Shown piece by piece: positions 26,682 through 62,051 of a DNA stretch of 64,000 nt (position 1 is its first letter; every line of letters starts with the position of its first letter). Origin of the DNA: an uncultured Phycisphaerales bacterium (GTDB lineage Bacteria; Planctomycetota; Phycisphaerae; Tepidisphaerales; Tepidisphaeraceae); the NCBI GenBank assembly GCA_963844715.1, contig CAWJPJ010000006.1, positions 864,001 through 928,000 on the forward strand. The letters are read 5' to 3'. A program made the position numbers and the translations under genes. The notes beneath the pieces were generated by a model that was given only the letters and a program-made list of their open reading frames with translations, did not search any database and was not told where the DNA came from.

Positions 26682-26793
26682 CGGGAGGCGGCCGGGTCCG
26701 ATGCAAGGGTCGGCCGCGAACCGGGTCAGGTCCGAGAGGAAGCAGCCCTAAGTGGTCCCGGCTTTGTGCCGTCGTCCCCCCGGCCGCTTTCCG
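26682..26793 (+). ncRNA. ffs: Signal recognition particle RNA (small bacterial 4.5S type)
   Basis: Helix-8 motif CCGGGTCAGGTCC-GAGA-GGAAGCAGCCC in a long hairpin closed by GGAGGCGGCCGGG / CCCGGCCGCTTTCC, followed by a T-run. Confidence 0.92.
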
Positions 26794-56823: not shown

Positions 56824-57934
56824 ATGGATCATCTCGTTTCGCGCCGCCGCCGCCGTGGATGCCTCGGGCATCCGCAAGGTGTTCGATCTGGCCGCGAAAA
56901 TGTCCGACCCGATCAACCTTTCGATCGGGCAACCCGATTTCGACGTTCCTGAATTCGCCAAGGACGCCGCGATCGAGGCCATCCGCAAGGGGAACAATCG
57001 ATATACTCAAACTCAGGGAATCGCGCCGCTTCGCGAGCGCCTGCGCAAAGATCTCTCGGCGGAATTTTCCCACGACGTCGGAGAAGTGCTCATCACCAGC
57101 GGCGTCAGCGGCGGCTTGATGCTGGCTCTCCTGGCCACCATCGACCCGGGTGATGAGGCGATTTTCCTCGATCCTTACTTCGTCATGTACAAGCATCTGC
57201 TCACTCTGGCCGGGGGGAAGCCGGTGATCGTGGACAGCTATCCCGATTTTCGCTTTCCCGCGGAGCGCGTCGAAAAGGCGATCACCTCCAAAAGCAAGCT
57301 GTTGATCCTGAACAGCCCCAGCAATCCTACCGGCGTGGCAATGAATCAGCGCGAAATCGACGACGCTGTGCGCATCGCCAAAAAACATAATCTGCTGATC
57401 GTCTCCGATGAGATTTACGAGCCGTTTCTATACGACGCGCCGCGCGGCCTGCCGAGCGCCGGGCATTCGCATGAAAACACTTTGATTCTTCGCGGATTTT
57501 CCAAGAGCCACGGCATGACCGGATGGCGACTCGGCTATGCCGCCGGCCCGTCGGAGATCATTTCGCAGATGACCAAGCTTCAGCAGTACACATTCGTCTG
57601 TGCCCCGGCGCCGTTTCAATACGGAGCACTGAAGGCGTTGGACGTCCCGATGGAGGACGCCGTGGCCGCGTATCGCCAGAAGCGCGATTTGGTCTGCCAT
57701 CGGCTGCATCGGAAATTCGAACTGGTCGTCCCCGAGGGGGCGTTCTACGTCTTTCCGAAGGCCCCGGCCGGGATGACCGGGAGCCAGTTCGTAGCCAAGG
57801 CGATCGATAACAACGTCCTGATCATTCCGGGGAACGTCTTTTCGGAGCGTGATACCCATTTCCGAATCAGCTACGCGACGACGATGGAGAAGTTGGAGGC
57901 GGGCTGCGAAATTCTTTGCAAGCTGGCCGGGTGA
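56824..57934 (+). CDS. Class I/II PLP-dependent aminotransferase
   Basis: LSIGQPDF, NSPSNPTG, SDEIY, GFSKSHGMTGWRLGY, FRISYA; small frameshift near the start. Confidence 0.92.
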
Positions 57935-57982
57935 TCTCGCGGGTGCTCAGAACTGTCAGATTCCGCGATCAATCGGATGGAT

Positions 57983-58012
57983 TTGAAAATCCGTCCGCCA
58001 GCGCGTTAGTAT
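57983..58012 (+). promoter_or_regulatory. Putative sigma-70 promoter for the tRNA-like gene
   Basis: TTGAAA (57983-57988), 18 bp spacer, TAGTAT (58007-58012); the -35 lies inside an inverted repeat at 57974-57997. Confidence 0.5.
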
Positions 58013-58093
58013 GGCGTCGTGCGGGTCGAATCTACTTGTGAATAGTCCTGCTGACGCCAACCGGCAACGATCGCTCTTCGGGGCGAGGCGGCT

Positions 58094-58178
58094 CCGGCAG
58101 TGGCGGAACTGGCAGACGCTCTGGATTGTCAATCCAGTGATCCACAAGATCGTACGGGTTCGAATCCCGTCTCCCGGA
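58094..58178 (+). tRNA. Non-canonical tRNA: Leu-type class II body with GUC (Asp) anticodon
   Basis: Acceptor CCGGCAG/CTCCCGG (one C:C mismatch), A73; D arm GCGGAACTGGCAGACGC; anticodon arm CTGGA-TTGTCAA-TCCAG; long variable arm TGATCCACAAGATCGT; T arm ACGGG-TTCGAAT-CCCGT; no encoded CCA; followed by T6. Confidence 0.82.
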
Positions 58179-58224
58179 GCTTTTTTCGTTTGACTTATGC
58201 CAAATCCGCGTCGATAACATTGTT

Positions 58225-58278
58225 ATCTTGTGGATCACTGGATTGCAGCCCCAGATTGACACCTGGGGCTAATTTATT
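58225..58278 (+). ncRNA. Putative small antisense RNA to the upstream tRNA
   Basis: 58225-58245 is the exact reverse complement of 58130-58150. Hairpin AGCCCCAG-ATTGACAC-CTGGGGCT has a loop complementary to the anticodon loop. Candidate -35 TTGACT at 58190-58195. Confidence 0.55.
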
Positions 58279-58311
58279 GGTCACGCCTGCCCTCCGCCGT
58301 CCCCATCAAGC

Positions 58312-61300
58312 TTACTTGTCATCCCCATCGCTCAGCACTCGATCCACGGTCGTCGTAATCGTATTGAAGCTCGTCGCCGAAACTTTCGGCTGCTGAATCG
58401 TTCCGCTGACGTGGATTCTGAGCAGTTCCTGCTTGGCCCCGTAGATCAGCGGCCCGAGGACGGGAAGGCTGACCAGCGTGGGGTTATCCGTCACAAACCA
58501 GAGGCTCACTCGCTTGGCCGCGAAATCGAGCTGGCCGTTGCCGTTCATCGTCATGTCCTTGCTCTTGAGGATGATTTGATCGAAGACGACCTGTTGGCCG
58601 TCGATGGCGTAGCGCGTGGTGGCCTCGGCGAAGGGGCTGCTGAGGGGAAGGGAGAGATTGGTGATCTGGAGCAGGCCTAGGAGGATGGGGAGGTTGTACA
58701 TATTTTCGCCGGTGACGCGGACGTCGCCGTGGCCGCGGCGGCTGGTGGGATCGCCGAGGGTGCCGTCGAGATTGAGCGAGGCGGTCAGCTTGCCGCTGAC
58801 GCCCTGGTTCTCCGGGGCGGCAAGTTGCGCGACATCGGCGTCGCGAAGAACCAGGCCGAAGTCGTACCGGCCGGGCGAGGTGTCCTGATCGTTGTCGGAG
58901 TAGCTGAATTGCCCGCTCCCACTGAGATCGCCGCCGGCGAAATCGCCGCCGAAGCGCGAGATCTCGATGACCGGATCATCCGCCGGTTTGGCGATCATCG
59001 CCGAGAAATTTTGCGCAGGGCGTCCGGCCAGAAGGAGATTGTCGGCGGATAGCTGCATGCCAAGCCGGTGCAGCTTTCCGTCGCGCACCAATCCCGCGAC
59101 ATCCATCGCGCCCGTGGCGCCCGCGATGGGGAGGCCGATGTCCAGATTCGCGCCTAGAAGGCTGACCTTGGCGGCAAAGTCGATGTCCGGGCCGTGCCGC
59201 GTCCGCCGAGCCCGGACGGTAAGCCAACCGTGAGAAGTCCAAGCCGACCGAGCCGGTGAGTTTCAACGTCTTAATAATGTCGGATACCGTTTCAGGTACG
59301 GCGGCGATGGCGTCCGCGTCGAGCGGAACAGGGTCCGCGGTCAATTTCAATACCCATTCCGGATGCTCGCCGAGATCTCCTTCGCCCGTGACGGCAAGCG
59401 CCGATTTGCCGTGATGCGCGGTGATTTGCTTGAGCAACACTTTGGTCGGGGAGACGCTTAAAAGCCCATGCACGTCGTCCATCCGATATGGAAAAATCTG
59501 CGGCTTCACCGAAAGCTGAACGGGGTGAATCTGCAAATCGAGCTTTTCATCCGGGTCGGGTGCGCCGCTGAGCGCGGAGGCATATTCAACAGTCGCGTTT
59601 ATGCTTCCCTGCGGCTGGATCTCGTCCCACGCCTGTTTGGCCGGATCGGGCAACGCGGCGTACAGTGCCGGTTCCAGGGGAACATTTTCCGCGATGGCGG
59701 AAAGCATGATCCGCGGAGGCCGGGCCGACGGTTCGCCTGGCGCGGGAGCGCTCCATGCGATGGAGAGATGTCCCGCGATGTCCCCGGTGCCGCGTTTGGC
59801 GGTCATGTCCGTCAGCACGAAACTCGTCGGGGTGATTCGCATCTGGGCGCTGATCCCGGAAAGCGCGTAGGCATTTCCCAACGGCCAGAGAGCGCCATTG
59901 TGCAAATGGGCGTTGAACAGAAAATCGACGTTGGGATTGGGCGAGTTGTCCTGCACTTTGGAGGGCGTCACATTGCCTTCCACCTCGATCAACCCGGTCG
60001 CTCCCACGGCGACGAGCCAATCGCGCTCGGCGGCGGGCAGAGCGCCTTTTAATTCGTCATCGAGCGGAAGATTTCTGGCAACGACGTGCAAATTCGGCCC
60101 CACCGGCTGGGTCGTCGCCGGTCCGTGATTGGATTTCCAGGTGATCCGGCCATTGATATCGACCGACGCGGTGCCGCGGCGCATGGCGATATTCTTCAGA
60201 TCGACAAAGCGATCGTGAACTTCCAAACGGCCCGTCACGTGACTCATGGGATAAGGGAAGAAGACAAGCGTACCGGCGGCATCCTTGAGATCGACGTCAG
60301 TCGTGAAGTCGAAACGCCGGTGCTGGCCAGGCTGACGCTCGATATGGCAAACGACGTCCGCGCGGAATTGCGGGAGCGCCGCCGGTGCCGTCGGGATCGA
60401 AAAGGCGCAGCGCCCGGTCAACCTGAGGGGGCATTGCCGTGCGCAGAGCCGGCTCGCTGGCGATGTCCTTGGCGCTGACGTCCAGCCATATTCCGGCCAC
60501 TTGATCGAGGGGGCCAATGAATCCGTTGATGGTAACAGTCGAATTCGCGTTGGGGCCGTCTTTCAACCCGTAACCGGTGACGCCGAGCACGCGGATTCCG
60601 TCCATTTTCGTAAGTGGATCGTGCCCGATGAGGATTTCGCCCGTCGCGTCGCAGAGCGGATAGGGAAAGTCGGCGAATTTGAATTGCCCGTCGTGGATAT
60701 CGATCGCGCCGACCACCGCCGGGCGCGCGCCGGCTTCGCCGCGATTGAGCGTGACCGACACGCTGCACGTCCCCTGCGGATGCAGGCGCTCGTAAATCTC
60801 CTGAACCTCCGGCGGCAAAGACCCGGCGTAGGTGGGCGACCAGGCGGGGATTTCCAAATCGTGCCCCGGCATGGACGAGACCGTCAGCTTCGCCGCGGCG
60901 TCGGGGGAATAGCCGTGGATGATGCCGTCGAGATCGAACCAGTTGTTTTCAAGGCGGCCGTTGATGCCGTTGAGGGTCAGATCATCCTGAGTGAACACGA
61001 GCGTCCCGGAAACCTGCCGGAGATGCACCGGTTGCGGTGTGCTCAGGCGGCGCAGGGAATCGATGACATCCTGCGTGATCCATTGTCCGGGCTGGAGAGA
61101 GTCCAACAACGCGTGGAATTTCCGCACGTTTTCATTTTGCCGGCGGCTCATCCATTCCTCGGGGCTGACGGCCAGTTCGACGCTGCTGAGAGAAATTTCC
61201 ATGCGGAAGGAGGGTTGCTCGCCGGGCTTGCCGGGCGTGAAATACATTTCCGGCACGTCGATGCGTCCCTGGAGCTGGTGGCGTTCGCACCATTCTCGCG

Positions 61301-62051
61301 GCTCGGTGAAGAGCATCGTTTTGATGTCAGGACCGAAAGTGAAGTTGCGCAGGCGGGCAAACGAGACGCCGCCGTCGGTGCGGATGGTTCCTTCGACGCT
61401 GGGTCCGATGGATTCGCGGCCGCGGCTTTGAAACTGGAAGTCGTACTGGTCCGACTCCTCGCCGGGGGAGAGGGAGCCTTCGAGGCTGTACCAGCCGATG
61501 GTCTGGGTGTGATTGTTGCGCATCTCCAGGTAAGCGACCTGGGCGTCGCGGAGGATGATCTGGGGAAGAACGGGCGGCCCGTTGGCAGCGCTCTTGTCGT
61601 GGCGGGGAGGAACGCCTTTGCCGTGCCAAAGGCGCTGATAATTCCAGCGGTGGGTCTGGGCGTCTTCGACGAGAATGACCGTGGGTTCGATGGCGACGAT
61701 CTGCGTGCCGGAGATTTTGCCGGCCAGCAATTCGAAGGGATTGTATTTGATCAGCAGCGTCTGCGCGTGAAAGACCGTGGCGTCGGGAGTGGGCGGGCCT
61801 TCTACGCGGACGGTCACGTCGTCGAGGCGCAGCCCTTCAAAGATGGAGAGGCTAGCGCGGCGGATTTGGACGTCGCCCCCGAGGAGATCGGAAAGGTAGC
61901 TTTCCGCCATGGCGCGGACGCGTTTTGCGTCGGTGATCCAACCGTAGCCGAGGATGACGACGCACAAGCCGACCAGGACGGAGAACATGCACTTGCGGCG
62001 GATGGGGGAGCAGCGCGGCGCAGGGGTGCTTGGGCCGCCAGGTGCGGTCAA
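58312..62051 (-). CDS. Large AsmA-like / YhdP-TamB-like envelope protein (two frameshifts)
   Basis: N-terminal TM anchor, long beta-rich repeats (FPYP...TG.I), AsmA-like C-terminus (GNGQLDF...LLRIHVSGTIQQP). Pieces 60297-62051, 58976-60517, 58312-59106. Confidence 0.78.

Follow-up and report, generated by a model that had tools for sequence, protein, structure and literature searches.

Antisense control through kissing loops is known from plasmid CopA/CopT, from ColE1 RNA I/RNA II and from type I toxin-antitoxin loci of the hok/sok type, and type VIII toxin-antitoxin systems (e.g., SdsR/RyeA and CreT/CreA) combine an RNA toxin with an RNA antitoxin. A further point of comparison is the T-box, a cis-acting mRNA leader of amino-acid genes that also reads the 3' end and the elbow of the tRNA. 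Here we analyze a 64,000-nucleotide (nt) stretch of DNA from an uncultured Phycisphaerales bacterium (contig CAWJPJ010000006.1, positions 864,001 to 928,000 of the forward strand; hereafter "the window"), in which a hairpin starts 69 nt 3' of the gene for an 85-nt tRNA (58094-58178) with a leucine (Leu)-type body and an aspartate (Asp) anticodon. We consider it reasonably probable that this hairpin is the 3' end of a dedicated antisense small RNA directed against the adjacent tRNA, and that the two would form an RNA-only pair of the toxin-antitoxin type. The complementarity of the tRNA and the small RNA, and the pairing predicted from it, are well supported at the level of sequence; the biological role is a proposal that competes with the rival readings weighed below.

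As in the kissing-loop systems, a small separate RNA with a terminator hairpin would recognize its target through a loop and then form a long helix from a single-stranded end, and the cassette is small, sporadic, free of proteins and placed in intergenic DNA. Unlike in those systems, the target here is a folded tRNA with a true anticodon loop rather than an mRNA or a primer, the small RNA lies beside its target and not opposite to it, and there is no toxin peptide. Assignment to type I toxin-antitoxin systems in the strict sense was rejected, as a tRNA is targeted and the locus involves no gene for a small hydrophobic peptide. With type VIII systems the locus shares two partners that would both be RNAs and an antidote acting by base pairing, but the presumed toxin would be a mischarging tRNA acting via translation errors, there are no Cas proteins, and the harm expected without the antitoxin is deduced from the Leu body and the Asp anticodon only. 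Our literature searches on toxin-antitoxin systems found no tRNA-type toxin. The first-pass annotation of the hairpin had likened it to a T-box specifier; this holds as an analogy, in that an RNA loop displays the codon that pairs with a tRNA anticodon, but no T-box features accompany it. The small RNA would be free-standing and has no regulated gene downstream (next to it comes the 3' end of a convergent gene), and an additional helix of 12-21 nt would unfold the tRNA rather than dock it. No Rfam T-box match was found at the gathering threshold in the window, and none at E values up to 1 in loci L001, L081 and L105.

Several tRNAs with disagreeing body and anticodon have been described. According to passages of the papers concerned, nematode nev-tRNAs are class II tRNAs that are charged with Leu and carry non-Leu anticodons (PMC3333845), bacterial tRNAProX is a natural tRNA whose body and anticodon disagree (PMC10404621), and allo-tRNAs, among which GUC is one of the commonest anticodons, have an 8/4 or 9/3 acceptor/T-stem geometry (PMC7609411). 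As far as these passages go, the tRNA described here resembles all three in the mismatch of body and anticodon, with its class II body and non-cognate anticodon, and differs from allo-tRNAs (8/4 or 9/3 stems, serine (Ser) identity) in its 5-base-pair (bp) T stem and its Leu D-arm. An allo-tRNA was thus rejected, the T stem having five pairs that are 100% paired in six loci and not the 8/4 or 9/3 geometry. In the passages concerned, no dedicated antisense RNA is reported for nev-tRNAs, tRNAProX or allo-tRNAs, and the word "antisense" has no occurrences in those of PMC11415595 and PMC7609411. Similarly, no tRNA with a dedicated antisense small RNA was found in Rfam 15 or in the main texts of the papers searched, and the two-RNA cassette, present in several unrelated bacteria, has apparently not been described before.

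A hairpin and a seed complementary to the adjacent tRNA

The first-pass annotation had described a terminator-like hairpin whose loop shows the codon cognate to the anticodon. A hairpin with this stem, loop and tail is present in the sequence and was recovered by the repeat finder and by the terminator scan, which listed it on the + strand only, with 8 pairs (6 of them G-C) and a loop of 8 (Table 1). The G+C-rich hairpin followed by a U-rich, albeit weak, tract has the make-up of an intrinsic terminator, and termination is predicted here; in the 1.4 kb scanned, 3 sites were found as compared to 1.2 expected in shuffles. The repeat finder also bore out the complementarity that had been proposed: GATTGACA (58254-58261) and TGTCAATC (58127-58134), the latter in the anticodon loop of the tRNA, are exact reverse complements of each other, and UUGACA (58256-58261), which displays the codon GAC at 58258-58260 in the hairpin loop, is complementary to tRNA positions 33-38. 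By our own estimate, a lone 8-mer match within approx. 130 nt is not beyond chance; this match is raised above chance because of the adjoining 21-nt repeat, its placement in a hairpin loop and its recurrence with covariation. Contigs of short reads from a soil metagenome (run X3) span 58013-58185 and 58157-58307 with zero differences, and the sequence of the cassette is therefore not an assembly artefact; the four metagenome DNA runs served for sequence confirmation only.

The tRNA, which is the only one called by ARAGORN in the window, has the D-arm (GUGGCGGAACUGGCAGACGC, as in this genome's tRNA-Leu genes), the long variable arm (with a 4-bp stem) and the A73 of a tRNA-Leu, and it carries GUC in place of a Leu anticodon (NAG or YAA). 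ARAGORN labels it "Asp" because of the anticodon alone. We rejected tRNA-Asp, for which the anticodon fits but the class I body fails (85 nt, long variable arm); only 60% of positions are shared with the genome's canonical 75-nt tRNA-Asp. In a BLAST search of the region against 40 relatives, matches fell in tRNA genes only, and all 19 look-alike loci examined were tRNA-Leu. Global identity gives overlapping ranges for the Leu (67-74%) and Ser (65-71%) members of the genome's class II tRNAs and cannot tell them apart; the assignment to Leu rests on the D-arm, A73 and the BLAST matches. This genome also has the canonical 75-nt tRNA-Asp(GUC) and all five tRNA-Leu isoacceptors, and the 85-nt tRNA is therefore an extra.

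Directly upstream of the hairpin lies a 21-nt segment (hereafter "the seed") that forms an inverted repeat of 100% identity with tRNA positions 58130-58150, i.e., C36 through the 3' anticodon stem and the variable arm. From the motifs around it, a small RNA of approx. 55 nt is predicted. Its candidate promoter is omitted by the promoter scan, as the -10 box lacks the final T; the sole promoter-like site that the scan lists in 57500-58900 is the candidate tRNA promoter. The computed energy of the seed duplex is -45.8 kcal/mol, as compared to a mean of -25.5 and a minimum of -30.9 in 20 shuffles, and the cofold of the two RNAs reaches -68.8 kcal/mol, as compared to -27.3 plus -18.9 (sum -46.2) for the separate RNAs.

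The first-pass annotation also suggested that there could be specificity against canonical tRNA-Asp, for which it gave the loop CUGUCAC. In this genome that loop is CUGUCGA, which by inspection would still give the hairpin loop five Watson-Crick pairs and one G-U pair; the predicted specificity comes mainly from the 21-nt seed and not from the loop. Among the 74 tRNAs of the genome, the best predicted partner of the small RNA is the adjacent tRNA (-53.9 kcal/mol, as compared to -44.3 kcal/mol for the next one, a modest margin). A C/D-box guide RNA was considered as well and dropped, as a GUGAUGA string occurs in L163 only.

Table 1. Coordinates of the tRNA, the candidate small RNA and their predicted signals in the window
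Feature	Position	Strand	Basis or remark
Candidate tRNA promoter, TTGAAA-18-TAGTAT	57983-58012	+	9/12 matches; leader approx. 75 nt
Leader bases -3 to -1 (GCU)	58091-58093	+	Complementary to 58178-58180 (AGC), lengthening the acceptor helix
Class II tRNA, 85 nt, Leu-type body	58094-58178	+	ARAGORN; Rfam tRNA, 51 bits
Anticodon loop UUGUCAA	58126-58132	+	
Anticodon GUC	58128-58130	+	
Variable arm GAUC/CACAA/GAUC	within 58094-58178	+	
Discriminator A73	58178	+	
TTTTTT run, probable end of the tRNA transcript	58181-58186	+	Directly after the extended acceptor helix
Candidate small-RNA promoter, TTGACT-17-GATAAC	58190-58195 and 58213-58218	+	Read from the sequence
Predicted small RNA, approx. 55 nt	about 58225-58278	+	Predicted from motifs
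5' seed AUCUUGUGGAUCACUGGAUUG, 21 nt	58225-58245	+	Perfect complement of tRNA 58130-58150
Hairpin, 8-bp stem, 8-nt loop AUUGACAC, tail AATTTATT	58247-58270	+	Sequence, repeat finder, terminator scan
Hairpin 5' stem strand AGCCCCAG	58247-58254	+	
Hairpin loop ATTGACAC	58255-58262	+	
Hairpin 3' stem strand CTGGGGCT / CUGGGGCU	58263-58270	+	
U-rich tail AATTTATT / AAUUUAUU	58271-58278	+	Weak terminator tail, 5 T of 8

Recurrence of the layout and covariation of the loops

A pattern consisting of a Leu D-arm followed by YTGTCA was searched in genome_contigs and gave at least 120 loci, with a tRNA called by ARAGORN in 4 of those listed; among the matches listed, two had a class II tRNA(gtc) (L081 and L105, both from metagenome-assembled genomes of planctomycetes). 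A stricter pattern gave 14 metagenome loci, zero matches in viral contigs and matches in 2 of 401 genomes of the phylum (the window's own and G191), i.e., in 1 among the 400 others. We judged 16 loci, leaving out L160 (identical to L158) and L157 (truncated). The full layout was present in six of these (the window, L163, L081, L105, L166 and L159), and L169, from G191, carries this small RNA as well, with its gene on the opposite strand. A variant is found in L155, L156 and L158, where direct antisense complementarity to the anticodon loop and the 5' stem resides in the 5' part of the downstream RNA. Exact reverse complements of the 7-nt anticodon loop were observed on the same strand, between -300 and +400 nt, in 6 of the 16 loci, and on the other strand in L169; we estimate the chance expectation of such a 7-nt complement at approx. 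0.04 per strand per locus.

The order of elements in the six same-layout loci is the tRNA, a T-rich run, a TTGACx box, 17-18 nt, a GATAAT-like box, approx. 6 nt, the seed, the hairpin and a T-run. The seeds are 12-21 nt long and directed against the 3' anticodon stem and/or the variable arm, and the loop of the G+C-rich hairpin contains TGACA in all six. The aligned promoter-like site of the relatives reads TTGACA/TTGACT-17-GATAAT/GATACT (11/12 matches in L105, 10/12 each in L081 and L166), and the hairpin tails there hold 5-6 consecutive T (TCTTTTT in L105, TTTTT in L081, GTTTTT in L166). In all three of these loci, which were scanned over 450 nt each, the sole promoter-like and the sole terminator-like site bracket the small RNA. 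Such an arrangement bears on the possibility that the downstream element is a 3' trailer of the tRNA precursor, folding back for maturation control in cis. The minimum-energy fold of a continuous strand of 201 nt does form the 21-bp helix (-76.6 kcal/mol, z -3.87), and some loci have only a short T-run behind the tRNA, so that read-through is possible. However, a promoter-like site separates tRNA and seed in six of six loci (confirmed by the scan in the three relatives scanned), a T-rich run follows the tRNA in five of the six (the window, L163, L081, L105 and L166), and L169 encodes the element on the opposite strand, where it has its own promoter-like site and T-run. We thus regard a trailer as improbable.

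The first-pass annotation had named covariation across homologous loci as a check of its proposal that the terminator hairpin of a trans-acting RNA recognizes the anticodon loop, and the result of that check favors the proposal. In an alignment of the six same-layout loci (A1; mean column identity 69%, with CGATA invariant), 40 of the 42 cells of the loop-loop helix are paired. In L163, L105, L166 and L159, all 7 nt of the anticodon loop find their exact reverse complement in the hairpin loop, and in L081 the hairpin loop matches at five positions with one G-U pair in addition. Positions 32 and 38 of the tRNA change together with the ends of the hairpin loop: the pair at position 32 is C-G in three loci, U-A in one and U-G in one (unpaired in one), and the pair at position 38 is U-A in three, A-U in one and C-G in one (unpaired in one). 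For cloverleaf and kissing helix together, 98.1% of cells pair as compared to 86.0% in shuffles (0 of 500 shuffles reached the observed value), and sliding the partners against each other drops pairing to 36-48%. Across the six loci, nine pairs of the cloverleaf (in helices 1, 3 and 5) are changed on both sides, and the tRNA fold is therefore under selection. Overall, the complementary loops with an extendable stretch and two co-varying pairs, along with the seeds in the six loci and L169, suggest a kissing-loop interaction.

As MAFFT left the seeds of the six loci out of register, seed covariation was read locus by locus. The seed sequences are unrelated between lineages, each mirroring its own tRNA. 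Between L105 and L166, the 17-bp seed helix differs by two compensatory double changes and one A-U to G-U change, none of them disruptive. In the window, L081, L105, L166 and L163, each of the 20 shuffles fell short of the duplex energy observed. The small RNAs of L159 and L169 have a further match to the tRNA, in its 5' acceptor/D-arm region.

The complementarity could instead act at the DNA level (e.g., through a site-specific invertase flipping a promoter-bearing segment) or be a functionless relic of an inverted partial duplication of the tRNA gene. The small-RNA gene did most likely arise by such a duplication, as L105 holds a collinear inverted repeat of 29 nt, and the repeat of the window is 100% identical, as after a recent event. 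Against this stand the differences between the arms, which are of the G-U type (L166, L159, L156 and L158) or bulges (L163) and thus matter for RNA and not for recombination, the compensatory double changes between L105 and L166, the placement of the loop complement in a separate hairpin loop in every locus, and the lack of any recombinase family beside the cassette in the window, L081 and L105. The unit of L169, on the opposite strand, consists of TTGCGA-17-TAGGTT, a 12-nt seed against the variable arm, a hairpin loop (GUGACAA) that is the exact complement of the anticodon loop UUGUCAC, and the T-run CTTCGTTTTT; its repeats are direct at the DNA level. Given this inversion with kept complementarity, only pairing of two separate RNAs in trans explains the conservation, and we consider a DNA-level function or a relic very unlikely.

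Still less credible, to the point of being nearly dismissed, is an ordinary intrinsic terminator of the tRNA or of the convergent gene with a coincidental match in its loop. The hairpin does lie between two convergent transcription units, it passes the terminator scan, and the 8-mer match considered alone is within chance, as noted. However, the hairpin does not qualify as terminator-like when read on the minus strand, a seed of 21 nt goes far beyond chance, and the loop complement recurs in L163, L105, L166, L159, L081 and L169, where it co-varies with the anticodon loop; with the column identity given above and differing seeds, these loci are not copies of one recent mobile sequence.

Further observations were made at the loci of the search. 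L158 (= L160) has two tandem copies of a candidate anti-tRNA small RNA 3' of the tRNA, each comprising two hairpins, a promoter-like TTGAC box and a seed that resembles CACGTGACAGGTTGC or CACTTGACGGGTTGC. L167 has a 13-nt direct repeat of the anticodon arm (CATCAGACTGTCA) approx. 50 nt 3' of the tRNA, after a terminator, which looks like the attachment-site scar of an element integrated in the tRNA gene and not like an antisense partner. A search for Leu-type tRNAs with other anticodons gave 119 viral loci, six of them with non-Leu calls at the Leu-type site (L184, L261, L189, L200, L227 and L231); inspection by eye of the 350-nt flanks of these six revealed no antisense partner. Among them, L184/L261 are called gtt and have A at position 33, L231 is called tat and L227 tta (ochre-reading). 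DNA similarity searches against phage records gave only a 72-nt tRNA-like match.

Proposed role and points that weigh against it

The antisense reading would work as follows. The small RNA would be transcribed from its own promoter just 3' of the non-canonical tRNA. This tRNA would most likely be charged with Leu and insert Leu at GAC/GAU Asp codons, which would be harmful; Leu is expected at Asp codons because leucyl-tRNA synthetase, according to passages of PMC11028032, does not read the anticodon. The terminator loop, which resembles an anticodon loop and displays GAC, would form a kissing helix of 6-7 bp with the pre-stacked anticodon loop, and the single-stranded 5' end would then zip up over 21 bp with the variable arm and the 3' strand of the anticodon stem, opening the cloverleaf and masking the anticodon. 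Either sequestration of the tRNA or cleavage of the duplex by a double-strand RNase may be the outcome. The cassette could be an RNA-only toxin-antitoxin system or a tightly gated mistranslation cassette; toxin-antitoxin logic would fit a cassette that is small and sporadically distributed and in which the small-RNA promoter is strong and that of the tRNA weaker. More specifically, and as a tentative proposal about which we are more doubtful than confident, the locus may be an RNA-only poison-antidote cassette of approx. 300 nt, in which a Leu-accepting, Asp-reading tRNA would be the poison and a short-lived small RNA that kisses and unfolds it the antidote; once transcription of the antidote stops (through loss of the cassette or phage shut-off), the stable tRNA would corrupt the proteome and halt the cell.

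The same pairing could serve another purpose: the tRNA may be a sponge or decoy, or a regulated adaptive mistranslator, and the small RNA may have other main targets (e.g., mRNAs with matching sequences), which would make the cassette a regulator and not a poison-antidote pair. Families of mistranslating bacterial tRNAs have been proposed as regulated, useful devices (as stated in passages of PMC10404621), the window copy combines a mismatch in the acceptor stem with a perfect seed, and the cassette lies among housekeeping genes in three loci. On the other hand, the small RNAs of different loci share only what mirrors their own tRNA, arguing that the tRNA is the target, the adjacent tRNA is the best predicted partner as described above, and the sporadic (2 of 401 genomes of the phylum), strain-specific distribution fits a selfish or defence cassette better than it fits a core regulator. 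Overall, we view another purpose as unlikely, while granting it more weight than a trailer.

Several points weigh against the antisense, toxin-antitoxin-like interpretation. Both transcripts are predicted from sequence motifs, and charging with Leu is presumed from two features only, the D-arm and A73. The window copy has a weaker -10 box (GATAAC) and U-tract than the relatives, its loop leaves position 32 unpaired (6 of 7 positions match), and its tRNA has a C5-C68 mismatch in the acceptor stem, a stem that is perfect in the tRNAs of L163 and L105; these features may mean that the window copy is attenuated or decaying. The loop complement and the seed of the window share five tRNA bases (58130-58134), and therefore both helices cannot be complete at once; the overlapping contacts would act in sequence there. 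In L105 the loop and seed contacts abut and could coexist. Pairing of leader positions -1/-2 with 73/74 (described below) could alter RNase P cleavage and processing, or identity. No antisense partner was found in the available DNA of 6 of the 16 loci (L154, L161, L162, L164, L165 and L167), and at two of these sites (L162 and L165) ARAGORN calls no tRNA. GUC was a fixed part of the search pattern, which places specificity to that anticodon outside its reach, and the six aligned loci hold two close pairs (window/L163 and L105/L166), so that the counts overstate independence. Duplex energies are not clearly above shuffles in L159, L169, L155, L156 and L158; the case for these loci rests on their exact loop complements and layout.

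Leader, genomic context and implications

An acceptor helix of at least 9 bp is possible only if leader bases are kept, and in the window the potential helix from leader pairing has 10 bp with one mismatch. Complementarity of -1 with 73 and of -2 with 74 was observed in all six same-layout loci, as compared to 1 of 70 tRNAs of this genome; it is also seen (as GU..AC or CU..AG) in L155, L158 and L161. The approx. 75-nt tRNA leaders of the window and L163 are homologous by eye and both hold CTTGTGA(A/G), complementary to the variable arm (in the window, 58035-58043 with 58140-58148), which may represent a second, cis-acting pairing.

The cassette of the window lies in an intergenic region of 377 nt (57935-58311), between an aminotransferase gene (56855-57934) and a convergent AsmA-like gene. 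An aminotransferase gene and a convergent large gene are also adjacent in three related genomes (G001, G002 and G004), and there is no tRNA in the syntenic gap of any of these; the gap measures approx. 33 nt in G001, approx. 113 nt in G004 (an unpublished genome) and approx. 1.28 kb, with a different open reading frame (ORF), in G002. The 377-nt region of the window is therefore lineage-specific, and with the cassette missing at this site in the three relatives, covariation was drawn from non-orthologous loci. The ORF in the gap of G002 (L029 2542-3126) has 194 amino acids and a lipoprotein-like N-terminus and is followed by T/C-rich repeats; this intergenic site seems prone to insertions.

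In L081 a PTPS gene and a BamB-like gene flank the cassette. In L105 its neighbors are an NAD(P)HX dehydratase gene and, on the other side, an ORF that lacks a Pfam family, with a GTPase gene further upstream, and in G191 (L169) it is surrounded by ORFs without Pfam families. None of eight flanking ORFs from L159, L169, L161 and L166 has a Pfam family, and two of these eight, both from L159, have phage-family matches. No protein neighbor of the cassette is conserved across the contexts examined (window, L081, L105, G191 and L159).

The convergent AsmA/DUF748-like gene of the window (58312-62051, - strand) is split into three overlapping frames (58312-59106, 58976-60517 and 60297-62051), and its counterpart in G002 is a single open frame of 1258 amino acids; either two frameshifts (a pseudogene) or indel errors of the assembly could account for the three frames. 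Approx. 24.6 kb beyond the end of the window, an array of 24 tRNA genes (G000:C6:952626-956065) holds, among others, another tRNA-Asp, a "Leu(cag)" of 74 nt that lacks a long arm, and one call with a 2-base anticodon; it may be a mobile or phage-derived tRNA island. Elsewhere in the genome, at G000:C8:348543-348635, ARAGORN calls a 93-nt "tRNA-Gly(gcc)" whose sequence is not tRNA-like and which is probably a false positive. The window also encodes an ordinary bacterial small signal recognition particle RNA at 26690-26788 on the + strand (Rfam RF00169, 63.7 bits).

If the pairing is functional, bacteria have small RNAs dedicated to a tRNA, which is recognized via its anticodon loop. If the poison-antidote reading is true, the cassette would be the first toxin-antitoxin or abortive-infection system with a tRNA toxin and would contain the first bacterial small RNA with a tRNA as its dedicated target. 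A functional pairing would also offer an RNA-only design for toxin-antitoxin, and possibly anti-phage, biology, as well as a compact, programmable on/off switch for a chosen tRNA, in which seeds and loops vary and the plan stays constant; the cassette is small enough for direct synthesis and testing in a laboratory host. In addition, it would show how a cell carries a code-breaking tRNA if the pairing is functional, inserting Leu at Asp codons, and holds it in check, and would thus bear on the evolution of deviations from the genetic code and on deliberate mistranslation.
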